From the UHGV virus genome UHGV-0140552: DNA of 35,002 nt. One strand, 5' to 3'. Each line of letters opens with the position of its first letter. Position 1 is the first letter of the stretch. Origin of the DNA: a virus. The position numbers and the translations under genes are program-made. Positions 11,867 through 33,895 of this stretch are shown here, in pieces. The notes beneath the pieces are model-generated. The model was given only the letters and a program-made list of their open reading frames with translations, made no database searches and was not told the DNA's origin.

Positions 11867-11940
11867 CATCTAGTAAGTTATCAGTTCCAGTGGACAGAAA
11901 AAATAATATTTTACGTTGAGATAATTCCCTATGCATAGGT

Positions 11941-12147
11941 TCAGAAAATAATAGGGATGAGATGTAGGTTACTGGACAAAAATCGAGCTAGTAGGCCGAG
12001 TACATCGCTATGCTGATCCGATAGGATGATGCGCGAGTTAGTGGCCACATCAAATCGATCAGCAAACGCCTGTGTGGAAAGTGCGATGAGTCGCTGCCAA
12101 TCATCTCCTGCCCGTGTGCTTAAACTGTCAGCATAGCGAACAACCAT
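11941..12147 (-). CDS. Doubtful small ORF (68 aa from ATG 12147)
   Basis: ORF without a convincing Shine-Dalgarno. Could be a gene remnant. Confidence 0.25.
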   Translation of the reverse strand: MVVRYADSLSTRAGDDWQRLIALSTQAFADRFDVATNSRIILSDQHSDVLGLLARFLSSNLHLIPIIF

Positions 12148-12278
12148 ACCAGACAAAACAGAACCGTCAGAAATGGCGGTTTTCTTTATAATTCAATCGG
12201 ATATTTTGAGGTTTATTGTTGATTTTTAACGATTCGTGCTCTTAAAAATTTGCGCTCACTGTCAGTTGGTAGTATATA

Positions 12279-12298
12279 TACTGTAATTTTATACAGTA
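12279..12298. promoter_or_regulatory. LexA (SOS) box TACTGT-AATTTTAT-ACAGTA
   Basis: Perfect CTGT-N8-ACAG with the flanking TA/TA of the E. coli-type consensus TACTGTATATATATACAGTA. Overlaps a candidate promoter (-35 TTGGTA 12266-12271, -10 TATACA 12290-12295) and lies 20 nt upstream of a GTG start. Confidence 0.7.
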
Positions 12299-12318
12299 TT
12301 GTTGTTGAGGGAGAGGTA

Positions 12319-12510
12319 GTGGTTGATAAGAAAGACGCAGGAGACCTTCTCCCCGACGATGGTGATGTACTGATAACGTGTGAAAATGGGAAGATTAAGA
12401 AGACCAGAATTGTCCATTCCGATGAGCACGTAGCGACACTTAACGCGTTGTTTGAATTAGCTAAATTGACGGGTTATACCATTATCAAACCAGACGGCAA
12501 TATGCTATAA
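12319..12510 (+). CDS. Small protein (63 aa, GTG start) under the LexA box; candidate SOS-controlled antirepressor or induction factor
   Basis: GGGAGAGG Shine-Dalgarno 5-6 nt upstream of GTG 12319. The longer ORF-track call would place the LexA box inside the coding region. Confidence 0.5.
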   Translation: MVDKKDAGDLLPDDGDVLITCENGKIKKTRIVHSDEHVATLNALFELAKLTGYTIIKPDGNML

Positions 12511-14112: not shown

Positions 14113-14409
14113 ATGCCGCTGGTCGCCACCTTCCGTACAGACTGGTTCAGAGTCATTACCGACCTGACCAGAAAAAATCTCACCACTCAGCAAATCGCCG
14201 ATGAACTTGGCGTTTCAAAATCCGCCGTCCTCGGCTGGAAATCTGGATCAGAGCCTCGCCATGGTCACGGTGAAGCGCTGATTGCTCTCTGGTGTCTGGC
14301 TACCAGCTCAGACCGTAAAAAACTCCCTACTGTGCTTTACCGCCAGTGGTGGACGTTCCGCCGCCCTGTTTTTGGTCGGGAAACTGACCAAAAGGGCAAC
14401 ACACAATGA
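14113..14409 (+). CDS. Small HTH DNA-binding protein (98 aa); candidate late-gene regulator by position
   Basis: HTH-like segment LTTQQIADELGVSKSAVLGW. Last gene before the virion module. Confidence 0.45.
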   Translation: MPLVATFRTDWFRVITDLTRKNLTTQQIADELGVSKSAVLGWKSGSEPRHGHGEALIALWCLATSSDRKKLPTVLYRQWWTFRRPVFGRETDQKGNTQ

Positions 14410-14437: not shown

Positions 14438-14878
14438 ATGGCTCGACCGAAAAAAATCGTTGAGATGCCGGGGCAGGAAAAAGCGGCGTCGGAAGAAAAA
14501 ACGCTCGTTACAGAGGGGCAGTTAATTACTGCTGAACAGAGCGGCGTGCAGCAGCAGGGGAACGGCAGCGGCGAAGAGACCTTGCAGCAAAAGGTTTCAA
14601 CCCTGCTTGATAGCACTCAACTGGCAGAACGTAACGCCATTCTCGCCACGCTCAACGCGCAGGGTGCTGCCATCGTTGCCCGCTTCGAAGAGTACGCCTT
14701 CACTGACAGCCTCGATCACCCACTGACCAATAACCTCGATTTCCTCAATCTGGTACGCAAAGCCACCGATGTAAGCACTGGCGGTACGGCGGAGCAGGTG
14801 ACAAACGAGGAAGGCAAAAAGCAACCAGTACGCAGCGCGCCGGTATTAACCGAACACGGCTGGCACGTTCCAGGCTAA
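14438..14878 (+). CDS. Hypothetical protein (146 aa), first gene of the virion module
   Basis: Strong Shine-Dalgarno (CAGGAG). Sits just upstream of the gp6.7-like and portal genes. Confidence 0.6.
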   Translation: MARPKKIVEMPGQEKAASEEKTLVTEGQLITAEQSGVQQQGNGSGEETLQQKVSTLLDSTQLAERNAILATLNAQGAAIVARFEEYAFTDSLDHPLTNNLDFLNLVRKATDVSTGGTAEQVTNEEGKKQPVRSAPVLTEHGWHVPG

Positions 14879-14888
14879 GGAGATTTTT

Positions 14889-15110
14889 ATGTGTGGAAGC
14901 GCACCAAAAGTTGTTCAGTCAGACCCGCAGGCCGAAGCAGATGCAGCAGCAGACGCAGCCGCCAAAGCTGCGAACGCTGACGCAGCCGCGCGCAAAAAGC
15001 GCAAACAGGGATCATCCCTGCTGGCCAGCGGCGCAGAAGGCGCAACGGATACAGGTTCTTCCCTGCTGTCCACTGGCGCACAGGCCGCAAAAAATACGTT
15101 AGGGGCTTAA
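14889..15110 (+). CDS. Small virion protein resembling T7 gp6.7 (73 aa, N-terminal MC..., Ala/Lys-rich)
   Basis: Size, composition and position immediately upstream of the portal gene, as in T7-like phages. Confidence 0.5.
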   Translation: MCGSAPKVVQSDPQAEADAAADAAAKAANADAAARKKRKQGSSLLASGAEGATDTGSSLLSTGAQAAKNTLGA

Positions 15111-17804: not shown

Positions 17805-17835
17805 CATGTCACGACTACGGTCTGGGCCACTGGTC

Positions 17836-18135
17836 TTATTGCTTATTAAGCCAATCGAGGCCAGTGGCTGTTATAAAGGTTTGTCTGGTATCGATAAGCC
17901 AACGACCTTCACCGCGTTTAGGGTTGTCTATCTGCGCTCCATCCTCATCAATATATAAGTATTGAACCTGTGAGGATATCAGTCCTTTTTGATACATATA
18001 GAGAATGTGGCCATCAAGTTTATCTTCGCCATACGTCCTTAATAATTTGGTATATCCATCAGTCATTAATGGGTGCGGATAAAACTCTTGCAAATATTTT
18101 AATATATCGAAACAAACATTTTCTTCAATTTTCAT
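17836..18135 (-). CDS. Moron: hypothetical protein (99 aa) on the opposite strand between scaffold and capsid genes
   Basis: AT-rich island. TAAGGAAT Shine-Dalgarno upstream of ATG 18135. Orientation opposes the virion operon. Confidence 0.55.
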   Translation of the reverse strand: MKIEENVCFDILKYLQEFYPHPLMTDGYTKLLRTYGEDKLDGHILYMYQKGLISSQVQYLYIDEDGAQIDNPKRGEGRWLIDTRQTFITATGLDWLNKQ

Positions 18136-18202
18136 CAATTCATTCCTTAGTTGCTTAGAGCAACACCAGTATGGCACTAGTTTTTGTGCAGATATAGGTA
18201 TT

Positions 18203-18218
18203 TGGTCGGGATTCCGAC
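18203..18218. repeat. Hairpin motif GGTCGG-GATT-CCGACC (copy 1 of 4), upstream of the capsid gene; followed by ATCACTCCA at 18235-18243
   Basis: Identical 20-mer TTGGTCGGGATTCCGACCGC recurs at 30919-30938. Confidence 0.8.
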
Positions 18219-18369
18219 CGCGCACCTCGCTAACAATCACTCCATAACCAGCCCGGCGGGGACGCCGGATACCTGATTTCTCCCGCAATGCGCCAGCGCC
18301 AACCGCATTGTGCAGATTTGGGCCGGGAAACCGACACCCCGCAGGCGATTTTTTACTGGAGTGATTTTT

Positions 18370-19275
18370 ATGTCATTTGATACAAACAAGAACATGATCA
18401 CCGCTGCGTTTGTTACGCAGTTTCATGATTCTTTCGAAATTGCTGCACAGCAAAAGGATTCGCGCCTGCAAGCGGCTGTCCATGACCGTGGCAGCATCAC
18501 CGGTGCGTCGTTCACCATCAACGATATGGGCACCATTGAGATGACCCAGATCACCACGCGCTTCGGTGATACTGTCTGGGATGTTCCGGAAGCTGGTACC
18601 CGTAATGCGCTGATGGCCGACTACGGCGTTTTCGTCCCGGTCGAGAAACGCGACCTGCGCAAGCTGATTGCCGACCCGCAGGGGCCGTATTTGCAGCTCA
18701 CCCTGTCCGCCGCCAACCGCAAAAAAGACGATGTTATTTACCGCGCGCTGCTCGATGCGGTACTGCGTAAGACTGAGAACAACGGCGCGTATGCATCCGT
18801 TACCCTCCCGGCCTCGCAGAAAATCGTTGCTGGTGGTACCGGCATGACCAAAGCCAAACTGATCGCAGCAAAAGCGATGTTCCGCCGTAACGAGTGTGAC
18901 GAGCAGAACGGCGAAGAGCTGTACATGACGTACAACGCCGACATGCTGACGCAGATCCTCAGCGATACCACGCTGACCAGCGCCGACTTTATGGCGGTGA
19001 AAATGCTTCAGGAAGGTGCGGTAAACGGTAACTGGCTGGGCTTTAAATGGCTGGCTTACGAGAAACTGGACTCTGTGACCGCCGAAAGCGTCACCACCAA
19101 AACCGCCGCCGCCTGGTGTAAGTCCGCTGTGCATTTCGGTACCGGCGCTGAGTACAACGTCGATATCGGCCCGCGTCGCGATAAAAATAACACCATCCAG
19201 ATTTCCGTTGATGCGTCCTATGGCGCTGGCCGCGCCAACGAGAAAAAAGTCGTTGCCATCGATTTTGTAGCATAA
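18370..19275 (+). CDS. Major capsid protein (301 aa)
   Basis: Position after the scaffold gene, size, and GGAG Shine-Dalgarno. Assigned by synteny; similarity to T7 gp10 was not obvious by eye. Confidence 0.6.
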   Translation: MSFDTNKNMITAAFVTQFHDSFEIAAQQKDSRLQAAVHDRGSITGASFTINDMGTIEMTQITTRFGDTVWDVPEAGTRNALMADYGVFVPVEKRDLRKLIADPQGPYLQLTLSAANRKKDDVIYRALLDAVLRKTENNGAYASVTLPASQKIVAGGTGMTKAKLIAAKAMFRRNECDEQNGEELYMTYNADMLTQILSDTTLTSADFMAVKMLQEGAVNGNWLGFKWLAYEKLDSVTAESVTTKTAAAWCKSAVHFGTGAEYNVDIGPRRDKNNTIQISVDASYGAGRANEKKVVAIDFVA

Positions 19276-19334
19276 AGCCGCTGGTACCTTTGCCGGGGGA
19301 TCCCTCCCGGCCTTTTTTCATCTGAGGTAAGGCT

Positions 19335-19898
19335 ATGGCTTCCAGTATCTCTATCTGTTCTAACGCACTGCTGGCGCTCGGCGCTCATCCCATTAACAGC
19401 TTCGACGAAGCGACCGAACACGCCCGCCTGTGCTCCAATATTTACCCTACCGTACGCAATGACCTGCTGCGAAAACATCCATGGAACTGCGCGGTAAAAC
19501 GCGTCGTGCTCTCACCGTCCAGCACCGCGCCCGCGTTTGGTTTCGGCTACCAGTTCCCGCTGCCGGGCGATTTAATCCGGATCCTGTCCGTTGGCCGTGA
19601 GTATGAGGATATCGGGTACCGCGTTGAAGGAAACCGCCTGCTGGCGAATCAGAACGTAATTTATCTGCGCTACCTGTTTCGTAACGAGGATGAATCGACG
19701 TGGGATTCGTCGCTGGTCAATCTGGCCGAAGCGTTCATGGCCGCAAAGCTGGCGTACGCCGTCACCGGCTCCGCGAGTCTGCGCGACAGTCTGACGCAGG
19801 AAGCTGCATTCCTTCTTCGCCAGGCCAAATCTATCGACGGACAGGAAGAACCGCCGGAAACGCTGGACGGCTATCCAACTTATGAATCGAGGTTCTGA
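19335..19898 (+). CDS. Tail tubular protein A, gp11-like (187 aa)
   Basis: Size and position after the capsid gene, as in T7-like podovirus gene order. Confidence 0.55.
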   Translation: MASSISICSNALLALGAHPINSFDEATEHARLCSNIYPTVRNDLLRKHPWNCAVKRVVLSPSSTAPAFGFGYQFPLPGDLIRILSVGREYEDIGYRVEGNRLLANQNVIYLRYLFRNEDESTWDSSLVNLAEAFMAAKLAYAVTGSASLRDSLTQEAAFLLRQAKSIDGQEEPPETLDGYPTYESRF

Positions 19899-21889
19899 TG
19901 CGCGCGAACCTGATAAAAACCAATTTTACCGCGGGTGAAATTTCCCCGCGCCTGATGGGGCGTGTTGATATCGCCCGCTATGCCAACGGTGCAAAAATTA
20001 TCGAAAACGCGGTGTGCGTGGTGCAGGGCGGTGTCGTTCGCCGACCGGGTACGCGCTTTGCCGCTGCCGCTAAATATGGTGACCGGACAGCACGACTGAT
20101 CCCCTACGTCTTTAACCGCTCGCAGGCGTACATGCTCGAATTTGGCGACGGGTATCTGCGCATCTACCAGAACGGCCGGCAGCTGGTAAACGACGATAAT
20201 ACCCCGTATGAAATCGCCAGCCCGTACACCGTCGATATGTTGTCTGAGGTGAATTACGTGCAGGGCGCTGACACGATGTTTTTAGTGCACCAGAGCGTCC
20301 CGCCGCACCGCTTGCAGCGTAAGGGGCAAACTGATTGGGTACTGGAAGCCGCGCCGTTTATCGTGGAACCATTCGACGAAATCCGCGACACGCCGGAGAA
20401 ATGGTGTAAGCCATCGGTTAAAGAATTCGTCGGCTCAGAAATCACGCTGACGCTCAGTGATGCCGAACCCGCAGATGATGACGATTCCCCCGCGTTTACT
20501 GGTACCGGCTGGGTATCGGAGGACGTTGGTTCGTACGTTCGTATTAACAGCGGTCTGGTGCTAATTAAGAGCATCACCAGCGCGCAGATTGCTGTCGGCA
20601 CCATCCGCACCGATTTAAGCGCAACGCAGGCGGCATCCCCCGGAGCCTGGACACGTGAAGATACTGTCTGGACGGAGGAATTTGGCTACCCCGGCGCGGT
20701 GACGCTGTACCAGCAGCGGCTGGTTCTGGCTGGTTCCCCGCAGTACCCGCAAACAATCTGGTGGAGCGAAACCGGCGTTTACCTGTCGTTTGAGCTGGGA
20801 ACGGACGACGACGACGCGATCAGCTTTACGCTGTCTTCTGACCAGTTAAACCCGATCGTGCATCTGGCGCAGATGAATACGCTTATCGCGCTGACGTACG
20901 GCGGCGAGTTTACAATCACTGCCGGCAGCGACGCGGCGATCACCCCGACCAATATTTCGGTAAAAAATCCCAGCCCGTACGGCTGCAACAGCATTCGCCC
21001 GGTTCGTGTCGGTACCGAAATTATGTTTATCCAGCGTGCCGGGAAAAAACTGTATGCCGTGGCGTATGACCCCGACAGCTACGTTTCGTATTCCGCCAAT
21101 GATTTAACGGTGCTGGCCGAACACATCACGGCCGGCTGCGTCCTCGATATGGCGTATCAGCAACAGCCTGATGCGTTCGTGTGGCTGATCCGCGCCGATG
21201 GCGTACTGGTGACGATGGGTATCGACCGGGCGCAGGATGTAGTCGCATGGTCACGCCAGATCACCGATGGCGTTTTTGAATCGGTGGCGAGTATTCCCTC
21301 GGAAAGCGACGACGTGATTTATGTTCTGGTGCGCCGGGAAGTTAACGGCCAGACCGTTCGTTATGTTGAAGTATTCGACAGCAACCTGAATACCGATTCC
21401 GCAGTAACCGGCTCCAGTTCAGAAGGTGCCACCACGTGGACAGGTCTTTCTCACCTCAATGGAAAAACGGTTGATGTGGTGGCCGATGGTTCCGTGATGC
21501 CGCAGGCAACGGTAACAGACGGGCAAATCACTCTCAGCCGCAAAGCGAAAAAAATCGAAGTAGGCCTGCATTACGAAACCACCATCCAGACGCTGACGCC
21601 GGAAATCTCAACGACAGAAGGCACCACGCAGAACGCCCGCAAGCGTACCAGCGAAGTCACGCTCCGCTTTATGGAAACCACTGGCGCGGAGTGCAACGGT
21701 CAGGTGATCCCCTTCCGTACCTTCGGCCCAAAAATCCTTAACCAGCCCGCGCCACTTTTCACCGGTGATCATTATTTCGGGAAACTTGGCTGGGAGCGCG
21801 GGGAAGACACTTTGATTATTCAGCAACGCCAGCCGCTGCCGTTTCATCTGCTGGCGATTATTTTCACGTTCTCCAGCAACGGGGGCTAA
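19898..21889 (+). CDS. Tail tubular protein B, gp12-like (663 aa)
   Basis: Large protein translationally coupled to the gp11-like gene. Assigned by synteny. Confidence 0.6.
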   Translation: MRANLIKTNFTAGEISPRLMGRVDIARYANGAKIIENAVCVVQGGVVRRPGTRFAAAAKYGDRTARLIPYVFNRSQAYMLEFGDGYLRIYQNGRQLVNDDNTPYEIASPYTVDMLSEVNYVQGADTMFLVHQSVPPHRLQRKGQTDWVLEAAPFIVEPFDEIRDTPEKWCKPSVKEFVGSEITLTLSDAEPADDDDSPAFTGTGWVSEDVGSYVRINSGLVLIKSITSAQIAVGTIRTDLSATQAASPGAWTREDTVWTEEFGYPGAVTLYQQRLVLAGSPQYPQTIWWSETGVYLSFELGTDDDDAISFTLSSDQLNPIVHLAQMNTLIALTYGGEFTITAGSDAAITPTNISVKNPSPYGCNSIRPVRVGTEIMFIQRAGKKLYAVAYDPDSYVSYSANDLTVLAEHITAGCVLDMAYQQQPDAFVWLIRADGVLVTMGIDRAQDVVAWSRQITDGVFESVASIPSESDDVIYVLVRREVNGQTVRYVEVFDSNLNTDSAVTGSSSEGATTWTGLSHLNGKTVDVVADGSVMPQATVTDGQITLSRKAKKIEVGLHYETTIQTLTPEISTTEGTTQNARKRTSEVTLRFMETTGAECNGQVIPFRTFGPKILNQPAPLFTGDHYFGKLGWERGEDTLIIQQRQPLPFHLLAIIFTFSSNGG

Positions 21890-22341
21890 TGATGATCCGT
21901 AATGCAACCGCCGGTGATATTCCGGCGCTTATCGAACTGGGAACCCGGATGTACCTGGAATCCCGCTATTCCGAAAACTCACCCTTTGACGCGGACAAAT
22001 GCGCGGAACTGGCTGAGAGCCTGATTTATTCCCCCGCCGGATGCGTGCTGGTGGCAGAGAAAAACGGCCTGGTGATTGGCTGGCTCGGCGGCGGCATCGC
22101 GGAGCAGTTTTTTTCCCGCCAGTTGATGGCGTTTGAATATGGCCTGTTCGTCGCTCCGGAGTACCGGGGCGGCAGCGCGGGCCCACGGCTGGCCCGTGCA
22201 TTTATCGAATGGTCGAAAGAACACGGCGCCGCAGTGATCAACATGGGGATCACCACGGGCGTCCATGCCGAACGTACTGGCCAGCTTTATTCCCGCCTCG
22301 GTCTGCAACGTACCGGGCTGCTTTATTCGATGGAGGTTTAA
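21889..22341 (+). CDS. GNAT-family N-acetyltransferase (150 aa) embedded in the virion gene block
   Basis: Acetyl-CoA-binding-type motif FVAPEYRGGSAGPRLARAF. TAATG overlap with the tail tube B gene. Confidence 0.75.
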   Translation: MMIRNATAGDIPALIELGTRMYLESRYSENSPFDADKCAELAESLIYSPAGCVLVAEKNGLVIGWLGGGIAEQFFSRQLMAFEYGLFVAPEYRGGSAGPRLARAFIEWSKEHGAAVINMGITTGVHAERTGQLYSRLGLQRTGLLYSMEV

Positions 22342-22343
22342 CG

Positions 22344-22832
22344 ATGTGTACAGGTGTTGAAATCGCACTGGTGGCTTCTTCGGTTCTCGCTGCTGGCGGG
22401 GCAGTGGCCAGCGGCCAGCAGCAAAAGAAAATGGCGAACTATCAGGCCGCGCAGGCTGAAGCCGACGCCGAAGCATCAAAAGCAGCGGCAAAAGTTGAAG
22501 CGGAGCGTATTCGTAAAGCCGGTCGCCAGCAGGCATCTGCCGCCAATGCTGCGTTGGCAGCTTCAGGCGTTGAGACGGGAGAGGGAACGGCGCTCCGTGT
22601 CACGTCAGGTATTGTAGGGGATGCGGAGCAGGACGCCTATCAGACAATCCTTAATGGCGTGAATTCTTCTAATCGCCTGCAGGCGCAGGCACAAGCCGAC
22701 AGGATCAGCGGCAGTAATGCGGCGACAGCGGGGAATATTAGTGCTGGCAGTTCATTACTTAGTGCTGGCGGAACTGCATACAGCGGCTGGAAAAAAGCAA
22801 AAACAGGCAAATACGGTTTATATGCGGAGTAA
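22344..22832 (+). CDS. Internal virion protein (162 aa), Ala-rich, N-terminal hydrophobic segment
   Basis: Position and composition. TGGAGG Shine-Dalgarno. Confidence 0.5.
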   Translation: MCTGVEIALVASSVLAAGGAVASGQQQKKMANYQAAQAEADAEASKAAAKVEAERIRKAGRQQASAANAALAASGVETGEGTALRVTSGIVGDAEQDAYQTILNGVNSSNRLQAQAQADRISGSNAATAGNISAGSSLLSAGGTAYSGWKKAKTGKYGLYAE

Positions 22833-22837
22833 GTGAC

Positions 22838-25552
22838 GTGAGAATTCCAACGGGTAATTTTGGTAATGTGACACCGCAGGCACAGCAGACGCGTGTCGCT
22901 GTTAGCAATGTAGGCACTATAGGCAATGCGGTGTCTGGTTTTGGGACCGCTACAGGGCAGGTAGCAGAACAAGTACAGCATGAGCAGGATAAAGCCGATG
23001 TGGCAGCCACGCAGGCGATTCTGACTGATCTGGAAGCTAAATCTAATGACCGCTGGGAAAACCCGGAGACGGGCGCCACGGTCACTCGTCAGGGCTTTAA
23101 ATCGTCCGGTGTGGTAACCGATATGGATAAGGCCGACGCTGGCGATTACGAGGAAGCGCGGAAGCGCGTACCGCCCAACCAGTTAAACTATTTTGATGCG
23201 CAGTGGAAAGCAGGGCAGGTACGCCGGACAAGTACCTACAGCGGTTTCGAGCGTGCACAGACGGATGAGGCCCAGCGGCAGCAGCTTAATGCGACGGTGA
23301 CCACTTCCGTCGAACAAGAGGCCAGCGCATACGATAATCCGATGCAGGCAGGGCTGATACGTAGCGCCCGTAAACACTCGATCGAGATGTATGGCCAGGC
23401 GCGTGGCTGGCCGCAGGAGCGCATCGACGCGGCGGTATCAGAAGCGAACCAAAAAGCGCTGGAGCAGCGCGCGCAGAACTACGCGGTAACCAATCCCACT
23501 GGCTGGCTGAATGGCGATTTTACGTTGATTAACAGCAGCACCGGCGAACTCGATATGCGCGCCGTTGGCCTGGTGGAGTCCGGTGGTAAGCACCGCAATG
23601 CGGATGGTAGTCTTGTTACATCGCCCGCTGGCGCGCAGGGTGAATTTCAGTTGATGCCGGACACAGGGAAAGAACTGGCGGCTAAACGTGGCGTGGAATA
23701 CAACCCGGACGATCCTGTGCAGCATGCGCAGCTGGCGCGTGATTATGCCGGGCAGCTCAGTAAAAAATACCAGTCAGAACCACTGGCCGGGGCCGCGTAT
23801 AACTGGGGGATGGGTAACGTCGATAAACTGATCGCCAAAGTGGGCGACCCGCGCAAAGGCGAAATCTCGATGGCGGATTTCGTTAAGCAGCTGCCCGCAG
23901 AAACGCGCGGTTGGTTGTCCCGTTACAACAAAAATAAAACCGGTCTCGACCCGGTAGCAGTAAACAAAATCGACAATATCGCCGAAGCGCAGATCCGGCA
24001 GCAGCGTACGGCGCTGCGCCAGCAGATTGACCCGATTCTCAATAATACAATGGCGCAGCTGTATAACGGCGAGGTGCCGGATGCTATGCCGAACGCCTCC
24101 ACCATTTTGTTTGCGTATGGTGAGCAGGGGCAAACAGCGGTCAAGCAGCTGGATATCGCGATTGATAACGCCAGAACCTTCCAGGCTATTCAGTACGCCA
24201 CCCCGGCAGAACAGCAGGCCGAACTGGCGAAGGTGAAGCCGCAGGCAAACGATCCCGATTTTGCGCTAAAACTTGATGCACACGGCAAACTTAGCGCGCT
24301 GGTGCAGAAGAGCAACGCCAATATTCAGGCGCAGCGCGACTCCGCCCGCTTTAACGATGCGCTGCTCTCCGGCGAGAAACTCGACCCGAGCAATAAATCT
24401 ATGCAGAGGGCGGCGGACAATACGCCATCGGCGCTTAACTTCCGCATTAACGACGCCACCACTCACGACGCCATCGTGCAGCAGGTTAACCAGACCGGCA
24501 TTATCCCATCGCAAGTTACATCGCAACTGAATGCGATCGCCCGTTCCAGCAGCCCCGGCGTGGTTAAGCAGGGCTCGACATTATTTAACGCGCTGTACGA
24601 AACAGATCCTGCCTCTGTGGGCGATATGCCAAAGGACATGCAAAGCTTTTACCTGACCGTTAAACAACTTACCGATTCCGGCATGGCGTCAGACGAAGCA
24701 GTGAAGCAGGCGCAGAACGTTACCTATAACCAGACTGATGCCCTTAAATCACAATTGTCTTCTACGCAGAGCACGAAGGAATACAAAAAAGAGCGTGCCA
24801 GCGCGATGGATTCCGCAGTCAGTAGCATGAAACCGTGGTACAGCTTTGGCGGTCCTGCAGCAGATGACCAGAATCTTAACGCCGTCAATTTCCGTAACGA
24901 CTACCAGTCGCTTTATGACATCAATTATCGCAACTCGGGTGGTAATGCCGATGTTGCCAAAAAGATGACCAATACCCAGATCGCGCGTACCTGGAGTCTT
25001 AGCGATGTGAACGGCAGCGCCCAGTTTATGAAATACGCGCCTGAAGCACTTTATAACTACGGGCCTTCTGGTTGGCAGGCTGCGCAGTGGAAAGAAGAGA
25101 AAGAGCGTCTGACCTATGGCGAACGTGGAGAAAAATTTGAAACCAGCCCGACCCAACTGGGTATTACATCAGGTTCAGCGCCCGTTATTACATCAAATAC
25201 ACCTGAATCCCAAATCGGTGGTGAACTGGAAATTACCCCTGACGTTTTAACCACGCGTAACGGTGACTACGCCATTATGGTTCGCATGAAAGATAAAGAT
25301 GGTAACGAGAGCGTACAGCCATATTACGATAAATTCAGGCGTCCGATGCGCTGGAAACCGTCGCTGGAAGACTGGGAACCGTATAAAAAAATGCAGCAGG
25401 AGCGGGAACAGCAAGGCGAAGAGGAATTATCACGCGGGAAAGATATTCGAGGCTTTAAGGAAAAACACCGAGCGCTCGATGAGCAATATCAGCGTTTGCA
25501 CGATGACCGTATGAACCGGGTTAAAAACTACTTTTCATGGAGCAATGAATAA
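22838..25552 (+). CDS. Internal virion (ejection) protein with lytic transglycosylase (SLT) domain (904 aa), GTG start
   Basis: SLT motifs ES...GAQGEFQLMP...AYNWGMGN around residues 250-330. Large size and position in the internal-core block. Confidence 0.75.
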   Translation: MRIPTGNFGNVTPQAQQTRVAVSNVGTIGNAVSGFGTATGQVAEQVQHEQDKADVAATQAILTDLEAKSNDRWENPETGATVTRQGFKSSGVVTDMDKADAGDYEEARKRVPPNQLNYFDAQWKAGQVRRTSTYSGFERAQTDEAQRQQLNATVTTSVEQEASAYDNPMQAGLIRSARKHSIEMYGQARGWPQERIDAAVSEANQKALEQRAQNYAVTNPTGWLNGDFTLINSSTGELDMRAVGLVESGGKHRNADGSLVTSPAGAQGEFQLMPDTGKELAAKRGVEYNPDDPVQHAQLARDYAGQLSKKYQSEPLAGAAYNWGMGNVDKLIAKVGDPRKGEISMADFVKQLPAETRGWLSRYNKNKTGLDPVAVNKIDNIAEAQIRQQRTALRQQIDPILNNTMAQLYNGEVPDAMPNASTILFAYGEQGQTAVKQLDIAIDNARTFQAIQYATPAEQQAELAKVKPQANDPDFALKLDAHGKLSALVQKSNANIQAQRDSARFNDALLSGEKLDPSNKSMQRAADNTPSALNFRINDATTHDAIVQQVNQTGIIPSQVTSQLNAIARSSSPGVVKQGSTLFNALYETDPASVGDMPKDMQSFYLTVKQLTDSGMASDEAVKQAQNVTYNQTDALKSQLSSTQSTKEYKKERASAMDSAVSSMKPWYSFGGPAADDQNLNAVNFRNDYQSLYDINYRNSGGNADVAKKMTNTQIARTWSLSDVNGSAQFMKYAPEALYNYGPSGWQAAQWKEEKERLTYGERGEKFETSPTQLGITSGSAPVITSNTPESQIGGELEITPDVLTTRNGDYAIMVRMKDKDGNESVQPYYDKFRRPMRWKPSLEDWEPYKKMQQEREQQGEEELSRGKDIRGFKEKHRALDEQYQRLHDDRMNRVKNYFSWSNE

Positions 25553-28446: not shown

Positions 28447-28449
28447 CTA

Positions 28450-28968
28450 TTACGACTTACATGATTCGGGGGAAACCCCAAACCCAAACATGAGGGTTTT
28501 CCCTGAATCACTGTAGTAATTGATCATTATTTTTTTATTTTCTTTTCGGGTTTCGTAGAATAGCCGCTCTTGAGATGACACTGGGTAAAATCCATCTGGT
28601 GCACAATACAAATCCCTTAAATTTTTCAATGTTGAATTTTTAGCGTCTTCTGATGTAAATTTTATAAAATCGTCTGTGTAAACATTGGCATTGTAACTAG
28701 ATATGGTTTTACTTCCTTCCACATAGTGAGTATTAGTTTCACTAAAATCTGCGTTTTCTTTATAGGTTCGCAAGTGTAATACCGATACATGGATCTCAAT
28801 TTTTTTACCAGTGTCGATACCGTTAATGACCGTATAGTCGGTATATGGATTGGTAATCTGTATTCCTGGTCCGGATATAGGAACGATATATTTAGAGTCA
28901 TCAACTAAATCGGTTGATGCGAATGCTGCAAAGTGAAAGATTAGCAACAATGGAATTAATATCTTCAT
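28450..28968 (-). CDS. Moron: secreted/periplasmic protein with signal peptide (172 aa)
   Basis: AT-rich island, opposite strand. N-terminal signal peptide MKILIPLLLIFHFAAFA|STD. AAGGAG Shine-Dalgarno. Confidence 0.7.
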   Translation of the reverse strand: MKILIPLLLIFHFAAFASTDLVDDSKYIVPISGPGIQITNPYTDYTVINGIDTGKKIEIHVSVLHLRTYKENADFSETNTHYVEGSKTISSYNANVYTDDFIKFTSEDAKNSTLKNLRDLYCAPDGFYPVSSQERLFYETRKENKKIMINYYSDSGKTLMFGFGVSPESCKS

Positions 28969-28987
28969 TCTATTTACTCCTTGTGAT

Positions 28988-29003
28988 AGTCAGGATTCCG
29001 ACC
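28988..29003. repeat. Hairpin motif variant AGTCAG-GATT-CCGACC (copy 2 of 4), upstream of the terminase genes
   Basis: Read from sequence; shares the GATTC core and flanking arms with the other three copies. Confidence 0.7.
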
Positions 29004-29050
29004 TCAAAAAGAATACATCATAGCTCTATGGATAACCACGGGGCTTTTTT

Positions 29051-29392
29051 ATGCATTCAGATTACAAAACTCGCCTTACTGCTCTTAGCGATAAGCTCAC
29101 CGATGTAGTTCTGGAAGAAGCCGATCCGGACAACTGGCCGGGGGCAGGGAAGGAAATCACAAAGCACACTAAACAGGAACGCGGTGATCGGTACTGGCAT
29201 AAGAAGAACGCGGCCGCATCGCTGACGCTGCTGGTAAAAGTCCATTCGCTGATTGGCATGCATACGCGCGGGGGGACGCCTAAACCCGGCGAGGATCCGG
29301 ACGATGAAGCATTCCGCCTGGGGCAACAGGTATCTGCGGCTGAACGGGCAGCACAGGAAGTTATCGAACGCATACAACAGCGGAAAAAATGA
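29051..29392 (+). CDS. Putative terminase small subunit (113 aa)
   Basis: Small protein translationally coupled (ATGA) to the large terminase gene. Assigned by position. Confidence 0.45.
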   Translation: MHSDYKTRLTALSDKLTDVVLEEADPDNWPGAGKEITKHTKQERGDRYWHKKNAAASLTLLVKVHSLIGMHTRGGTPKPGEDPDDEAFRLGQQVSAAERAAQEVIERIQQRKK

Positions 29393-30999
29393 TTTCATTC
29401 GTCGCCTTTTTCATCATATGGGCGGAGCGGATGGGGTGGGAGGTTCCCGACTGCCATTATCGAGCCTGCCACTGGTTGGAACACCGCGGGGATCTCGCGG
29501 TGCTTCGCTGTTTTCGTGGCTTTGGTAAATCTACCATTCTGGCGGTGTATAACGCATGGCGATATTACCAGAACCGCCAGTACCGCATTCTTCACCAGTC
29601 TGAAGCTGACGGCACCGCGTACAAAACCAGCCGCGATACGCAGAACGTTTTACGCAATCACCCACTGACCAAAGGCATGCTACCGGACGGACAGGGAACC
29701 GTTGAACAGTGGTGGGTTAACGGCTCTCTGGATATGCGTAACGGCAGCATGTACGCAAAGGGGATCCTCTCTAACGTTACCTCGGCCCGCGCTGATGAAT
29801 GCCAGAACGATGACGTAGAAGTACCCCGCAATATCCAGACGCCAGAGGCGCGGGAAAAGCTGCGTTATCGTCTCGGTGAACAGACACACATTCTTGTCCC
29901 CGGCGGGCGAAAGCTGTTTATCGGCACGCCGCATACCCACGATAGCCTTTACGATGAGGTTGAATCTATGGGCGCCGACTGTCTGACCATCAAACTATTC
30001 GGTAAAGAATTTAGAATCGAGGAAAAACAGGCCACCGCGAGCCGTTACTCGTTACCGTTCCGGCCGGAATATGTTTTCGTCGGTATTCACATTGGCGCGC
30101 GACTGCTCGTTGAAGGTGTTGATTATCGTCTTAACGATGACGGTATCGAGTTTGCCGAGGCTCCCGGCACCACGGTTGACTGTTACGCCGATTGTGAATG
30201 GCCAGAAAGGTTCACTCCGGAGGAAATGACAAAGCGCCGTCGCGAGACTCGCACAATTAACGAATGGGACAGCCAGTACCAGCTGCACAGTAAACCGGTT
30301 GGCGAGGTTCGTCTCGATCCCGACCGCATACGCGAATACAACGTACAGCCTGAAATCCGGTACGCGAACCGCTCCTGCTCGATGTGGCTTGGCCAGACGC
30401 AAATTGTTGGTGCTGTTGCCTGGTGGGATGTGGCCACCGGCAAAGTTAAGGCCGACGCCTCGGCGTTCTCTCTGATTTTCACCGACGCACGCGGGCATCT
30501 GTACTGGCATGTTTGCCAGGGGCTTACGGGCGAACTGGCGGAATTCGACGACAACGACAAAATCACCGGCGGTCAGGTGATGCAGATTAAAGAGCTGGTG
30601 CTTAAATACCAGATCCCGCTGGTCTGCGTCGAGGTGAACGGCCCGGGCAGCTTTGCCGGGAAATTGCTGATTCAGGCACTAAAGGGTACCGGCTGCGGCG
30701 TACGGGAAGAATTCAGCGTGACCAATAAACAAAAGCGCATCCTCGATGCATTCGAAGCGCCGCTGTCGTCGCGCTTCCTCTGGGCGCATACCGACGTGCT
30801 CGACGGCCCAATGTATGACCAGATGCGCGACTTTAACCCGGCGCTGACTAATCAGCCAGATGACTTTATCGACTCTGGCTCTGGCGCAATCAGCTCAACA
30901 CCAGTGCGCATTGGTAAATTGGTCGGGATTCCGACCGCACAGGCGCGGGAACATTGGCAACCAAATGATGGCGATCACATGGTCGCCGTAGATTACTAG
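29389..30999 (+). CDS. Terminase large subunit (536 aa)
   Basis: Walker A-like FRGFGKST near the N-terminus, size, and coupling to the small-subunit gene. Confidence 0.75.
   Translation: MISFVAFFIIWAERMGWEVPDCHYRACHWLEHRGDLAVLRCFRGFGKSTILAVYNAWRYYQNRQYRILHQSEADGTAYKTSRDTQNVLRNHPLTKGMLPDGQGTVEQWWVNGSLDMRNGSMYAKGILSNVTSARADECQNDDVEVPRNIQTPEAREKLRYRLGEQTHILVPGGRKLFIGTPHTHDSLYDEVESMGADCLTIKLFGKEFRIEEKQATASRYSLPFRPEYVFVGIHIGARLLVEGVDYRLNDDGIEFAEAPGTTVDCYADCEWPERFTPEEMTKRRRETRTINEWDSQYQLHSKPVGEVRLDPDRIREYNVQPEIRYANRSCSMWLGQTQIVGAVAWWDVATGKVKADASAFSLIFTDARGHLYWHVCQGLTGELAEFDDNDKITGGQVMQIKELVLKYQIPLVCVEVNGPGSFAGKLLIQALKGTGCGVREEFSVTNKQKRILDAFEAPLSSRFLWAHTDVLDGPMYDQMRDFNPALTNQPDDFIDSGSGAISSTPVRIGKLVGIPTAQAREHWQPNDGDHMVAVDY
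30921..30936. repeat. Hairpin motif GGTCGG-GATT-CCGACC (copy 3 of 4), inside the 3' end of the terminase gene, upstream of the tail fibre gene
   Basis: Exact copy of the 18203-18218 hairpin and its 20-nt context. Confidence 0.8.
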
Positions 31000-31016
31000 C
31001 CGCCGGAGTTCCTCGT

Positions 31017-33536
31017 ATGTCGGTACCGAACCAGACACCCTATAACATCTATACCGCCAACGGGCTGACGACTGTCTTTGCCTATGAGTTTTACCTGATC
31101 AGCGCCAGCGATATTCAGGTCACAATCAACGGCAACGAAGTAACGTCCGGCTATACAGTGTCTGGTGTGGGTAATACTGGCGGTGGCGAAGTTACTTTTC
31201 TGACCGCGCCGGCCAATGGCGCTACAGTCATTTTTGAACGTGTAACGCCGACTTACAGGCTCACTGATTACCAGGACAACGGCGACCTGCTGGCCGATAC
31301 AGTTAACAAAGATTTTGACCGTCTCTGGATGGCTACTCAGCGCGCGTTTATTTATCTCGGAGTGGCCCTAAGTCGCCCGCTGTTCGGCGGTGGACCTTTC
31401 AACGCTAACGGCTACCGGATAGCAAATCTGGCCGATCCAGTTAACGATCAGGATGCAGCTACTAAAAAATTTGTAATTGAAAATGGAAAAATTAATCTAG
31501 CTCGTACTCTACGCGTTCCGGAGTCTAGCATCACACCGTTACCTTCCATTGCAGAACGAAAAAATAAAATCGTTGCAATGGATAATAATGGCAATCCATT
31601 GATGGTATTGCCTTCGAGTGGAAGTGCAGCAGATGTAATGATTGAGTATGCCAAACCGACAGGTAGCGGGCATATAGGGGTTCTTACTGGAGGCACCGTT
31701 GAAGATGCAATAAAATACGTAACCCCTGAAATGATAAGGATTAATGGTGAAAGATATATTCACGGCATCACTGCTGATGCAACTAAATTTCTACAGGCAG
31801 CTATAGATTACGGAAAAGCTAATAACCTTCCGGTATATTTAACTAAAATGTATCCGTGCATATCTTCACCGATAGAGTTTAATTTGCCATTCGACGATGG
31901 GACTGTATACCCAGGGTGGATAGGGAACGGTGATTCAAATATTGCTCCTGAAATACCAGTTAAGGCAAAAGCAGCACTGCGTGTTTATGATGATTCAATG
32001 ATTGTTGGTGAAAACCAACACAATTGTGGGATTATTGGTAATTTTTCAAAAACTGCGGGACCATGGGATCATACATCTTCCATGGGTCTATACATCGCAG
32101 GTGACAGCGGACCAGATCAATACATAAAGTATCACCTTTCTGATTTCAGGATTAGCGGATTCTTTATTGGGCAATGGGTAGACGGGACTGTAAACCGCTG
32201 TGTAGAAAATAATATGATGTACTCAGGGTGTGCCATTCCTGCTTGTTATCAAGGATCTGATTCTCTGGCGCAAACTGGGCTGACATTATATTGGTATAAT
32301 ATTACAGGCCCTGTTTTTGGCGGGCGCTGGCTAACGAGAAATCATGCATACGCGTCTCAGTACCTTCCGCCGTACCCGGCATCAGATATTCATCGGGCGG
32401 GATGGAATGATTCGTACCATGTAGACAAGTTTCATTATTATGGTGATACCGGCATGGACTGGACACATCCAGCATATGCCGCTCTTGACACTTGGTTTGA
32501 TACGTATGTTTTCAAGTCTGCAAACTGCTTGCCTACGGCCAGCGGTGGTCGGTTGTCAAATAATCAGCAGAATGGGGTTTACCCAGTTGATACCTATAGA
32601 GGTATAGCTGGGCGCGCAAGAACTATTATTTCACTTCCGGGAAGGGAGATATTGCATTGCAATATTGGTGAGGCTAAAGTGCTGTGGTCTCCAAGAACGC
32701 CATTCTACCACTCTGCTCAATTCGTTGACGGATTTAAATCATATGTTGGTAACAGTAAAATAAGGACTCTTATACTGGAAAGGGTAGGAATCATCAAGTA
32801 TGGCCTTGGTGATGTTGCTGGAAATAGATTTAATGTTAATAATGTTGATCCCTACGAACCATCTCTTTCAACATTTCCAGCGATGGCAACAAGAGGAAAT
32901 ATTTTCGCCCTTGATATTGTAAAAGGTGGCGCGGTTCAGGCTGCCCCAGTTAATGAATTTAACGGCACAAGAATCGGTGCCGGTGAGAATATAGTTGCTC
33001 AAAGAAAGCTTGGAGATAATTCAAACTATCGTCTTTTCGGTCTTCAGGAGTTAAACGGAACAAATTTATCCGATAAGTATGTTTTTAATCGAAATGATGC
33101 CTATATGCCGCCAATAGCTTTTCCCGGTGGTAATGCTGCTCAGTTTAAGTATCTTTATGGCTCATTCACACCAACTATTACAATTGGCGGGGCAAGCGTA
33201 ACGCCATCATCCATTACTGGAATTTACCGTAGGTTTGGTGATGTTGTTCGTTGCGATATAAGAGTCAGATCAACCTCTTTACTGGTTAGTACTGCGGGAG
33301 CCATAGTCATTAGTGGTCTTCCTTTTACAGCCGCCTCAATACAGGAGGGTGGGTCTAAAGGAAGCATAATTCTAAGCACGGCTACAGGAGTTTTTGTTAT
33401 GCCGCTTGTTCCTGCAGGGACAAATCAAATGACGATTATAAAATCGTCAGCCCAAGAAATATATTCTCAAGCAGCTGGTACTTTTGATTTTACTCTCCAG
33501 TGTACTTTTGATTATGTTGTTCCTTTTAATTCATGA
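31017..33536 (+). CDS. Tail fibre / tailspike (839 aa) with T7-like N-terminal adaptor domain and an AT-rich distal receptor-binding region
   Basis: N-terminal segment NGYRIANLADPVNDQDAATKKFV parallels T7 gp17 (RGRRIVNLANAVDDRDAVPFGQL). GC content drops after about 31450. Confidence 0.8.
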   Translation: MSVPNQTPYNIYTANGLTTVFAYEFYLISASDIQVTINGNEVTSGYTVSGVGNTGGGEVTFLTAPANGATVIFERVTPTYRLTDYQDNGDLLADTVNKDFDRLWMATQRAFIYLGVALSRPLFGGGPFNANGYRIANLADPVNDQDAATKKFVIENGKINLARTLRVPESSITPLPSIAERKNKIVAMDNNGNPLMVLPSSGSAADVMIEYAKPTGSGHIGVLTGGTVEDAIKYVTPEMIRINGERYIHGITADATKFLQAAIDYGKANNLPVYLTKMYPCISSPIEFNLPFDDGTVYPGWIGNGDSNIAPEIPVKAKAALRVYDDSMIVGENQHNCGIIGNFSKTAGPWDHTSSMGLYIAGDSGPDQYIKYHLSDFRISGFFIGQWVDGTVNRCVENNMMYSGCAIPACYQGSDSLAQTGLTLYWYNITGPVFGGRWLTRNHAYASQYLPPYPASDIHRAGWNDSYHVDKFHYYGDTGMDWTHPAYAALDTWFDTYVFKSANCLPTASGGRLSNNQQNGVYPVDTYRGIAGRARTIISLPGREILHCNIGEAKVLWSPRTPFYHSAQFVDGFKSYVGNSKIRTLILERVGIIKYGLGDVAGNRFNVNNVDPYEPSLSTFPAMATRGNIFALDIVKGGAVQAAPVNEFNGTRIGAGENIVAQRKLGDNSNYRLFGLQELNGTNLSDKYVFNRNDAYMPPIAFPGGNAAQFKYLYGSFTPTITIGGASVTPSSITGIYRRFGDVVRCDIRVRSTSLLVSTAGAIVISGLPFTAASIQEGGSKGSIILSTATGVFVMPLVPAGTNQMTIIKSSAQEIYSQAAGTFDFTLQCTFDYVVPFNS

Positions 33537-33543
33537 GGCTAAT

Positions 33544-33813
33544 ATGACTTTCAGAGTGACGCAGACCATAGGAAAATCTATAGCATATCCAACGCTAGGT
33601 GTATGGATGCCATCAGAAGATACATCGATTGAAGTTGAATACCAGGCTGTATCGTTAATATCGCTAAATAATGGAACAGCGACTGTTTCATTTAAAGTTA
33701 GCATTGATGGTTGTCTTTCCTGTGGGGAGCTTACCCATTCTTTTGTGTATTCTGGGTCAGGAAGCCCTCTTGAAGAGGCAGAGGAATCACTTAAAAGAAA
33801 ACTCCAAATATAG
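33544..33813 (+). CDS. Hypothetical protein (89 aa) downstream of the tail fibre gene
   Basis: ORF in an AT-rich region with ATG at 33544. Possibly a fibre accessory protein. Confidence 0.45.
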   Translation: MTFRVTQTIGKSIAYPTLGVWMPSEDTSIEVEYQAVSLISLNNGTATVSFKVSIDGCLSCGELTHSFVYSGSGSPLEEAEESLKRKLQI

Positions 33814-33823
33814 AATTTCATTT

Positions 33824-33839
33824 AGTCAGGATTCTGACC
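33824..33839. repeat. Hairpin motif variant AGTCAG-GATT-CTGACC (copy 4 of 4), upstream of the lysis cassette; followed by ATCACTCCA at 33861-33869
   Basis: Read from sequence. Confidence 0.7.
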
Positions 33840-33895
33840 TTAGCTTCGCCTTACCCTCGCATCACTCCACATAGTGATCCCCATGGGGGTAAGGC

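Follow-up and report, generated by a model that had tools for sequence, protein, structure and literature searches.

The window, the whole 35,002-nucleotide stretch of virus genome UHGV-0140552, belongs to a group of temperate podophages of about 35 kb that are common prophages in Klebsiella, Raoultella, E. coli, Enterobacter, Serratia and Yersinia and that carry T7- or BPP-1-like virion genes and no recognizable polymerase gene of their own. A 16-bp imperfect dyad stands ahead of each block of late genes, and its five copies, all on the late-gene strand, are listed as P1 to P5 in Table 1 with the features around them. The motif had been described from the sequence alone as occurring four times; it is real, but the copy before the capsid gene lies at 18204-18219 rather than 18203-18218, and a fifth copy, within the 3' end of the open reading frame of a 98-aa helix-turn-helix (HTH) protein and 49 nt upstream of the first late gene, had been overlooked. 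The exact 16-mer occurs at P2 and P4, where the identity extends as previously described over the 20 nt TTGGTCGGGATTCCGACCGC (18202-18221 and 30919-30938), and the variants before the terminase genes and the lysis cassette are where they had been placed.

Table 1. Dyads, predicted -10 elements and neighbouring features in the late region of the window.
Feature	Position	Strand	Context
98-aa XRE-type HTH protein (phrog_16553), candidate late activator	14113..14409	+	last gene before P1
Terminator-like hairpin and T-run, weak	14346..14373	+	directly 5' of P1
P1 dyad GGTCGGGAAACTGACC	14374..14389	+	in 3' end of HTH ORF, ahead of 146-aa / 73-aa / portal / scaffold block
P1 predicted -10 CACAAT	14402..14407	+	12 nt past dyad; overlaps HTH stop codon
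P2 dyad GGTCGGGATTCCGACC	18204..18219	+	ahead of major capsid gene (ATG 18370)
P2 predicted -10 AACAAT	18232..18237	+	
Degenerate sixth copy GGCCGGGAAACCGACA	18321..18336	+	capsid 5' leader; no -10 downstream
Strong intrinsic terminator	19292..19321	+	just 3' of capsid gene
P3 dyad AGTCAGGATTCCGACC	28988..29003	+	ahead of terS/terL
P3 predicted -10 CATCAT	29016..29021	+	
Terminator-like hairpin AGCTCTATGG-ATAA-CCACGGGGCT and T-run	29022..29050	+	begins right after P3 -10, ends at terS ATG (29051)
P4 dyad GGTCGGGATTCCGACC	30921..30936	+	in terL 3' end (codons V-G-I-P-T), ahead of tail-fibre gene (ATG 31017)
P4 predicted -10 GAACAT	30949..30954	+	final T invariant 48/48 though codon varies His/Asp/Asn
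P5 dyad AGTCAGGATTCTGACC	33824..33839	+	ahead of holin / lysozyme / Rz cassette (ATG 33896)
P5 predicted -10 TACCCT	33852..33857	+	overlaps CCTTACCC (33849-33856)

With up to three mismatches allowed, the window holds seven matches to the motif where 0.27 would be expected, and seven was not reached in any of 100 shuffles. When a position weight matrix trained on relatives only was applied to the window, it returned exactly five sites scoring 33-51 bits, the rest of the window reaching no more than 8 bits and the shuffles a maximum of 2.6. The ATCACTCCA that had been reported to follow both the capsid and the lysis copies is present at both, one base from the position first given at the capsid site (18236-18244) and as given at the lysis site (33861-33869). 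Its register relative to the motif differs between the two (+17 and +22), and it is not common to both sites in relatives, which at the lysis site mostly read ATCACTACA instead; it was therefore rejected as part of the element.

Conservation at equivalent positions in related phages, a comparison that the sequence-only reading had suggested, was found: the motif is kept at the same four or five positions in prophages of E. coli, Raoultella, Enterobacter and Rosenbergiella (57-90% protein identity) and in Yersinia phage YeP4, and it is also conserved in more than 150 viral contigs. Protein homology retrieved over 170 viral contigs of such phages, and scanning viral contigs for the exact motif gave at least 120 stretches; a contig scan with the 904-aa SLT protein returned mostly unrelated SLT-domain matches, of which L003-L007 alone were useful. 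Across 168 related loci (2.7 Mb), 411 of 415 motif instances lie on the late-gene strand and the four exceptions are perfect palindromes, although the shared phylogeny of these loci means that such counts overstate independent support, the independent units being five paralogous sites in a handful of lineages. The motif is absent from Acinetobacter phage TPWB-05, E. coli phage APEC and Alcaligenes phage Piluca, and a de novo repeat search of TPWB-05, which has a weak homologue of the HTH protein, yielded A/T-rich noise only. About 15 kb of host DNA flanking prophages L001 and L002 contains no copies, which rules out a REP-like host repeat. The copy within terL is evidently under selection at the nucleotide level: its third codon positions (GTC-GGG-CCG-ACC) are invariant in 48 of 48 cases, and the flanking fourfold-degenerate codons, which encode invariant amino acids, use all four bases. 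A literature search on the motif, on phages YeP4-6 and on late promoters and activators returned nothing on this element, the only link in the APSE paper being that of the YeP4 early module to BPP-1-like phages.

Constraint is not confined to the dyad. The 265 unique copies have A at position +14 in 258 cases (1.80 bits) and at +17 in 207 (1.10 bits), and T at +18 in 258 (1.78 bits); the positions around these carry only 0.05-0.5 bits. The result is a hexamer NANNAT exactly 12 nt 3' of the dyad, with fixed spacing in about 97% of unique copies; the hexamers vary by paralogous site and lineage (AACAAT, CAAAAT, CATTAT, CATCAT, GAACAT, GAAGAT, TACCCT, CACAAT, GATACT, TAAAAT), A2 and T6 being nearly constant. 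In the window, all five copies have the A at position 2 (-11) and the T at position 6 (-7) of a sigma-70 -10 element. The usual T at -12 is missing (+13 carries no information), as is an extended -10 TG. A preference for C at +24 and A at +25 is as would be expected around a start site. The slot for a -35 element is occupied by GGATTC, inside the dyad, with no TTGACA-like hexamer, and a consensus promoter scan found no sigma-70 promoter at any of the five sites and no canonical one on the + strand between 14 and 31 kb. The motifs of sigma-54 (GG-N10-GC), sigma-E (GGAACTT) and sigma-28 (TAAA-N15-GCCGATAA), compared by eye, all misfit in spacing. Some of the -10 conservation at P5 and P4 could have another source, namely pairing with the downstream ribosome-binding site or coding constraint; the CCTTACCC that overlaps the P5 hexamer is able to base-pair with the ribosome-binding site of the holin gene, GGGTAAGG (33887-33894).

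The five copies are probably the upstream halves of five activator-dependent late promoters for the host sigma-70 polymerase, with the HTH protein as the probable factor. Each promoter would consist of the imperfect dyad RGTCRG-GAWW-CYGACC (preceded by A-W-T-T), a free spacer of 12 nt and a minimal -10 of N-A-N-N-A-T. With the T of the hexamer set as -7, the dyad would extend from about -40 to -25 (centre about -32.5) in place of a -35 box, and transcription would start near 14414, 18244, 29028, 30961 and 33864. Since no TTGACA-like -35 stands where the dyad does, the promoters would be silent on their own; a dimer of a small phage DNA-binding protein on the dyad would recruit or stabilise the polymerase and turn them on, the direction of regulation presumably being activation rather than repression. 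P1 would drive the portal and scaffold block, P2 the capsid gene and then the tail and internal proteins beyond the terminator that marks the end or attenuation of its transcript, P3 the terminase, P4 the tail fibre and P5 lysis. Terminators lie directly upstream of P1 (Table 1) and, as strong terminator-like hairpins, of P2 in most relatives, and therefore transcription must restart at these sites. Late promoters ahead of late blocks, one of the functions proposed in the sequence-only reading, are the best supported, in a modified rather than a T7-like form. Such a late-transcription map, in which five promoters with predicted starts are joined to a single candidate activator and a defined site of 16 bp, could serve to annotate these prophages, to distinguish in advance cargo genes active in the lysogen from those expressed only late, and to supply a compact orthogonal activator/promoter pair for engineering.

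The likely activator is the 98-aa HTH protein, because it is the sole non-structural protein common to relatives with unrelated early regions; it had already been proposed for EMSA in the sequence-only reading, and it is the best candidate factor. Its gene is co-inherited with the motif, P1 being conserved in L001-L004, L006 and YeP4 and present at 78 of 80 HTH loci. The early rightward operon has this gene at its distal end, and the protein is therefore probably made in lytic growth and not in the lysogen. In the early ORFs that were scanned with Pfam, nothing matched a polymerase, sigma or Q domain, three of the larger ones (741, 330 and 222 aa) being without any match, and the annotations of L001, L002 and YeP4 list no phage RNA polymerase, sigma or Q. 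The 741-aa protein was considered as a hidden polymerase and rejected, having no Pfam match and being an endonuclease by name in RefSeq relatives; its absence from L002 and YeP4 also excludes it as the common factor.

The PHROGs label of the HTH family is "transcriptional repressor", and XRE-fold proteins are often repressors. The dyad might accordingly be an operator, for the HTH protein itself or in the manner of a stoperator, that keeps late operons off by binding at -35 or as a roadblock, but this is rather unlikely. There is no -35-like hexamer or other promoter to block, the strict 12-nt spacing to the -10 is typical of factors that contact polymerase, and the HTH gene is probably one of the lytic phase. 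Stoperators of cluster A mycobacteriophages are one-orientation sites scattered through operons, which the present sites recall; the orientation bias is there, yet the identical motif accompanies unrelated immunity repressors in the window, L002 and YeP4, and stoperators of that type were rejected. The degenerate site in the capsid leader, with no promoter behind it, would suit a repressor; it is possibly an auxiliary binding site.

The hairpin appearance of the motif had also suggested a site for RNase III. That the motif acts as an RNA hairpin in late mRNA, whether to be processed by RNase III or RNase E, to stabilise the message or to signal antitermination, is improbable, although its orientation is constant, its sites lie between gene blocks like the RNase III sites of T7, and perfect copies fold at -11 to -14 kcal/mol (z -2.6 to -4.4). 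The commonest terS/lysis variant folds at only -2.9 kcal/mol (z 0.1), like shuffles, and stem changes go uncompensated: of the 265 unique copies, 69 have an A.C mismatch at pair 1-16 and 62 have one at pair 5-12, CCGAAC in three of the four YeP4 copies breaks pair 2-15, and there is no covariation, the 5/12 combinations fitting independence (4 A-T observed, 5.7 expected). With no more than 6-7 bp, the stem falls far short of the 20 bp or so of double-stranded RNA, or more, that an RNase III site would be expected to keep through compensatory change. Terminators directly 5' of P1 and P2 imply that the motif would often be untranscribed, and an RNA hairpin leaves the conserved A and T at +14 and +18 unexplained. 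Scanned against Rfam at gathering thresholds, the whole window gave no match, and no copy is followed by the T-run of an intrinsic terminator, upstream T-runs belonging to separate hairpins. Comparative sequence analysis alone can thus tell a hairpin-looking repeat from a protein-binding dyad.

Least probable of all is a hairpin or cruciform in the template (minus) DNA strand, read as by the N4 virion RNA polymerase: G.T wobbles on that strand do keep pair 1-16 in 261 and pair 5-12 in 246 of 265 unique copies, and the variants fold better there (-7.3 to -7.6 kcal/mol, z about -2), but a duplex half-site consensus RGTCRG yields the same pattern, 19 unique G/T copies mismatch on the minus strand, neither strand strictly preserves the hairpin, no N4-type polymerase gene was found (the matches of the large virion proteins are to internal-virion/SLT families), the sigma-70 -10 signature suggests an ordinary open-complex pathway, and a 4-nt centre in a 16-bp site suits two major grooves one helical turn apart.

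If the copies are activator-dependent promoters, the late genes may, more speculatively, be insulated twice over. The dyad in place of a -35 would make every late promoter wholly dependent on the HTH activator, and at P3, P4 and P5 a structure whose 5' arm coincides with the -10 or directly follows it would block read-through transcripts, by termination before terS or by hiding the ribosome-binding site of the tail-fibre and holin genes; only transcripts begun at the activated promoter would be translatable, because the predicted start lies 3' of that arm. The pairs of the terS hairpin are kept in 46-48 of 48 cases, some by compensatory change, and the predicted P3 start falls in its 5' arm. 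Insulation of this kind would protect the lysogen from terminase or holin expression via read-through from moron genes, and would bring into phage late operons the fold-back logic previously known from the transposase genes of IS10 and IS50.

Several known systems resemble the proposed promoters in part. The T7 group shares the structural gene order, a terminator after the capsid gene, and signals ahead of the genes for capsid, terminase, tail fibre and lysis. However, neither a phage RNA polymerase nor long double-stranded RNA was found here, and the T7 promoter is a contiguous consensus of about 23 bp, in contrast to a conserved block, 12 unconstrained positions and three constrained ones; the comparison with T7-style polymerase promoters in the sequence-only reading gives way to a bipartite arrangement of dyad and sigma-70-type -10. 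Controller (C) proteins of restriction-modification systems share the XRE-type dimeric HTH fold with the HTH protein, at a sequence identity of only 10-19%. Their C-boxes are paired OL/OR operators before the regulator's own gene that activate and repress, whereas the five distant promoters here have single dyads of unrelated sequence, one 3' of the HTH gene and the other four far from it, and no restriction gene adjoins them. T4 middle promoters join a -35-replacing MotA box near -30 to a normal sigma-70 -10, a likeness to the present arrangement, but the MotA box is asymmetric and 9 bp long, the co-activator AsiA remodels sigma region 4, and no homologue of MotA or AsiA was seen here.

Lambda CII promoters (PRE, PI, PaQ) are similar in having a small phage HTH protein (97-98 aa), a site straddling -35, a weak -10 and no usable -35, and in the control of several dispersed promoters by one factor. 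CII binds as a tetramer to TTGC-N6-TTGC, a direct repeat from about -38 to -25, and serves lysogeny genes, whereas the present site, at about -40 to -25, is an inverted repeat before late genes. Searches for kinship of the HTH protein with CII gave no Pfam Phage_CII match and only E 0.5-0.7 in a PDB profile search. In phages Mu (C/Mor), P2 (Ogr) and P1 (Lpa), a small protein that is produced as the early or middle phase closes activates several late promoters with a -10 and a shared dyad but no -35, the same activation logic as is proposed here. Mu C, Ogr (a zinc finger) and P1 Lpa belong to other folds or families, and their sites differ in sequence and in dyad position (about -43.5 for Mu C, -55 for Ogr and -22 for P1). 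A dyad centre at -32.5 is atypical for dimeric HTH activators, for which it is usually near -41.5.

The window is a temperate phage of ~35 kb with a lambdoid replication and Nin-type early region and, on the plus strand from 14.4 kb onward, a T7/BPP-1-like virion module in the order two small ORFs, portal, Bbp19-like protein, scaffold/protease, capsid, tail tube A and B, GNAT protein, internal virion proteins (one with an SLT domain), terS, terL, tail fibre and holin/lysozyme/Rz. Its near relatives are E. coli prophages at 84% and 79% DNA identity and prophages of Raoultella, Enterobacter, Rosenbergiella and Superficieibacter; the same group takes in Yersinia phages YeP4-6 together with over 150 IMG/VR contigs, each ~35 kb long. 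Remoter capsid relatives are HTVC010P-type pelagiphages, Alcaligenes phage Piluca and E. coli phage APEC. Neither Pfam scans of early ORFs nor the annotation of the relatives revealed a phage RNA polymerase, sigma factor or Q antiterminator.

A 16-bp imperfect dyad, RGTCRG-GAWW-CYGACC, precedes the late-gene blocks at five sites, P1 to P5. The sequence-only reading had noticed four of these copies, which are real, three of them exactly where it placed them and the capsid copy one base further to the right; it overlooked the fifth, GGTCGGGAAACTGACC, which lies just ahead of the first late gene and overlaps the last codons (G-R-E-T-D-Q) of the ORF for a 98-aa HTH protein. All five copies are on the plus strand, and the window holds seven matches with at most three mismatches, compared with 0.27 expected. 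When a weight matrix trained on relatives only was run on the window, the five sites scored 33-51 bits, no other window position exceeded 8 bits, and the shuffled-sequence maximum was 2.6.

Coordinates of the proposed late promoter motifs and associated features in the window
Feature	Coordinates	Strand	Remarks
Integrase	1-1017	minus	
CI-like repressor	5264-5650	minus	
Low-G+C island	10860-12500		ORFs of 180 and 133 aa
98-aa HTH protein	14113-14409	plus	candidate late activator
Weaker terminator	14346-14373		upstream of P1
P1 dyad (portal/scaffold block)	14374-14389	plus	hexamer CACAAT; predicted start ~14414
Two small conserved proteins	14438-15110		146 aa (phrog_17476) and 73 aa (phrog_9015)
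A+T-rich stretch	17805-18200		~400 bp, separates scaffold gene from P2
P2 dyad (capsid)	18204-18219	plus	hexamer AACAAT; predicted start ~18244
Capsid leader hairpin	18253-18268		CCGGCG-GGGA-CGCCGG
Degenerate dyad GGCCGGGAAACCGACA	18321-18336		~35 nt ahead of capsid ATG (18370)
Strong intrinsic terminator	19292-19321		8-bp G+C-rich stem and T-run, directly 3′ of capsid gene
172-aa ORF (phrog_8033)	28450-28968	minus	between last internal virion gene and P3
P3 dyad (terS/terL)	28988-29003	plus	hexamer CATCAT; predicted start ~29028
P3 hairpin and T-run	29022-29050		starts right after -10, ends at terS ATG
P4 dyad (tail fibre)	30921-30936	plus	hexamer GAACAT; predicted start ~30961
P4 arm GGGAACATTGGC	within 30944-31016		pairs with tail-fibre ribosome-binding region
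P5 dyad (lysis)	33824-33839	plus	hexamer TACCCT; predicted start ~33864
P5 arm CCTTACCC	33849-33856		overlaps -10; pairs with GGGTAAGG (33887-33894), the holin ribosome-binding site

The motif was found at equivalent positions in every relative examined, the conservation by which the sequence-only reading had proposed to judge it. Four or five positions are occupied per relative, ahead of the first late gene, the capsid gene, terS and the lysis genes and inside the end of terL, and this positional conservation reaches YeP4 as well as Rosenbergiella, whose SLT protein is 57% identical. Across 168 loci (2.7 Mb), the late-gene strand holds 411 of 415 instances, the other four being copies whose centre is by chance a perfect palindrome. 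No copy was found in the host chromosome flanks (~15 kb) of the related loci L001 and L002 (E. coli B379). The motif is also absent from APEC, Piluca and Acinetobacter phage TPWB-05; the HTH protein has no match in APEC and Piluca and a weak one (41% identical, inside the early genes) in TPWB-05. Within terL the motif encodes V-G-I-P-T. All 48 unique sequences have the same third base in each of the codons GTC, GGG, CCG and ACC, whereas adjoining fourfold-degenerate codons, whose amino acids are just as invariant, occur with any of the four bases; therefore, the constraint is on nucleotides, not on protein.

A hairpin of the template (minus) strand is formally possible, and most variants turn into G.T wobbles on that strand, but the duplex half-site consensus RGTCRG yields the same pattern, and 19 G/T copies are mismatched there. 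The transcript hairpin or RNase III site of the sequence-only reading is rejected on uncompensated stem changes and on the weak folding of the commonest variant. With stem pairs numbered by position within the dyad, pair 1-16 is A.C in 69 of 265 unique copies, and pair 5-12 is G-C in 180, A.C in 62, G.T in 19 and A-T in 4, counts that fit independent variation (5.7 A-T expected); no covariation was found in the dyad stem among these copies. YeP4 has CCGAAC in three of its four copies, which breaks pair 2-15 without compensation. AGTCAGGATTCCGACC, the variant seen most often ahead of terS and the lysis genes, has a folding energy of -2.9 kcal/mol (z 0.1), no more stable than that of shuffles, and good folding is limited to perfect copies. 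None of the copies is followed by a T-run, and the motif has no match in Rfam.

When all 265 unique copies were aligned on the dyad and information content was computed per position, the 12 nt behind the dyad proved near-uninformative (0.05-0.56 bits), and conserved bases followed at +14 from the dyad end (A in 258 copies, 1.80 bits), +17 (A in 207, 1.10 bits) and +18 (T in 258, 1.78 bits). Judged from sequence, these positions would correspond to A-11, A-8 and T-7 of a sigma-70 -10 element, of which sigma flips two bases, A-11 and T-7, out of the helix. The hexamer varies across the five paralogous sites and across lineages (CAAAAT, CATTAT, GAAGAT, GATACT and TAAAAT are among those found elsewhere), yet the conserved letters stay; in terL its final T is present in 48 of 48 sequences though the codon is CAT, GAT or AAT. 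C is preferred at +24 and A at +25, as would be expected for -1 and +1. If T(+18) is set as -7, the dyad covers -40 to -25, and the hexamer at the -35 location is GGATTC. Four conserved bases, A-W-T-T, lie directly 5′ of the dyad, and a consensus scan of the plus strand from 14 to 31 kb found no ordinary sigma-70 promoter.

In most relatives, terminator hairpins with T-runs end right ahead of P2. Together with the terminators upstream of P1 and behind the capsid gene, where T7 likewise has T-phi, they imply that transcription must restart at these places. Beyond the capsid terminator, the tail and internal-protein genes (9 kb) are without a promoter of their own and must rely on read-through. 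The late promoters of the sequence-only reading are supported in a modified form, as activator-dependent promoters of the host polymerase; a T7-style promoter is rejected, as no phage RNA polymerase was found and the sites consist of a dyad, a 12-nt gap and a sigma-70-type -10.

The probable activator is the 98-aa HTH protein, to which the sequence-only reading had also pointed. The early regions of L002 and YeP4 are unlike that of the window, with DNA polymerase, VapE primase, SNF2 helicase and a LexA-like repressor. When all window ORFs upstream of 14450 were compared with them by tblastn, the HTH protein was the one protein common to all three (60% identity in L002, 51% in YeP4); the sole other match was that of the CI-like repressor ORF, a generic HTH resemblance to the repressor/Cro HTH region of L002. 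The HTH gene is always the last before P1, and in 78 of 80 loci retrieved through the protein the motif lies at or just past its end. The family, phrog_16553, is restricted to Enterobacterales, and in profile searches lambda CII and P22 C2 sequences matched it without significance (E ~0.5). The residues that never vary in it (G33, V34, K36, V39, G41, W42, K43, G45) lie in or close to the predicted recognition helix, in keeping with GTC and GAC bases that stay unchanged while the HTH proteins diverge to as little as 50% identity. Each half-site is 6 bp, and the two centres are 10 bp, or one helical turn, apart, suggesting the usual geometry of a dimeric HTH protein. Residues 83-98 are of low confidence and many homologues end at 84-88 aa, so the tail of the ORF may be incidental read-through into P1.

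In the proposed mechanism, the HTH gene would be the end of early rightward transcription, and a dimer of its product would bind each of the five dyads in place of the missing -35 box, allowing E-sigma70 to open the minimal -10 and start ~7 nt downstream. Activation is favoured over repression because a repressor would have no promoter-like sequence to block, because the spacing of dyad and -10 is strictly fixed, and because the motif is identical in phages with unrelated immunity repressors. Lambda CII at PRE, PI and PaQ and the T4 MotA box are closest in position and logic, the controller proteins of R-M systems in fold and site symmetry, and Mu C, P2 Ogr and P1 Lpa in biological role; the circuit belongs to none of these families by sequence or site. 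It is a putative, as yet uncharacterised late-promoter circuit within a well-known kind of phage regulation.

At three sites (P3, P4 and P5), a stretch that coincides with the predicted -10 or directly follows it serves as the 5′ arm of a structure that would affect the downstream gene, and the predicted start lies 3′ of this arm. Of 48 unique sequences, 46-48 retain the pairs of the P3 hairpin, some changes being compensatory, and ~35 of 36 retain the P5 pairing; at P4, other lineages have different sequences that are likewise able to pair. Mean free energies for P3, P4 and P5, respectively, were -15.1, -32.0 and -24.5 kcal/mol for read-through RNA, -8.1, -27.4 and -15.2 when its 24-nt 5′ segment was shuffled, and -1.8, -16.3 and -7.7 for RNA from the predicted start. 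The read-through RNAs are thus far more stable than the shuffled controls, an effect not seen at P1. If the predicted starts are true, termination or occlusion of the ribosome-binding site would spare only the transcripts that begin locally. The IS10 transposase is protected from outside transcription, which the putative block on read-through resembles.

Several smaller features accompany the predicted promoters. In the ~125-nt capsid leader, the G+C-rich hairpin is strongly conserved, also in Rosenbergiella and almost as well in YeP4; Rfam has no matching family. The degenerate dyad in the same leader is kept in relatives and YeP4 with no -10-like hexamer behind it, and may serve the HTH protein as a secondary binding site (in feedback or to form a roadblock) or function as an RNA element. 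The sharing of ATCACTCCA between 18236-18244 and 33861-33869 is real but in differing register (+17 and +22 from the dyad), and it was discarded as part of the element because in relatives the two sites do not have it in common; at the lysis site it supplies the 5′ arm of a small hairpin in the leader, ATCACT...AGTGAT. The A+T-rich stretch ahead of P2 may be an insertion or small moron; the corresponding interval in the related loci L002, L003 and L004 is ~50 bp and made up of a terminator. The 172-aa ORF ahead of P3, whose counterpart is shorter in L001 and absent in L002, is a moron-type insertion at a transcription-unit boundary. The low-G+C island (33.5% in 11001-12000), whose two ORFs have no Pfam match, is probably a variable cargo or defence slot; L001 has a DUF2971 gene and an IS110 element at the equivalent site. 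In every relative, the first genes behind P1 are those of the 146-aa and 73-aa proteins, which may be co-factors of late transcription.
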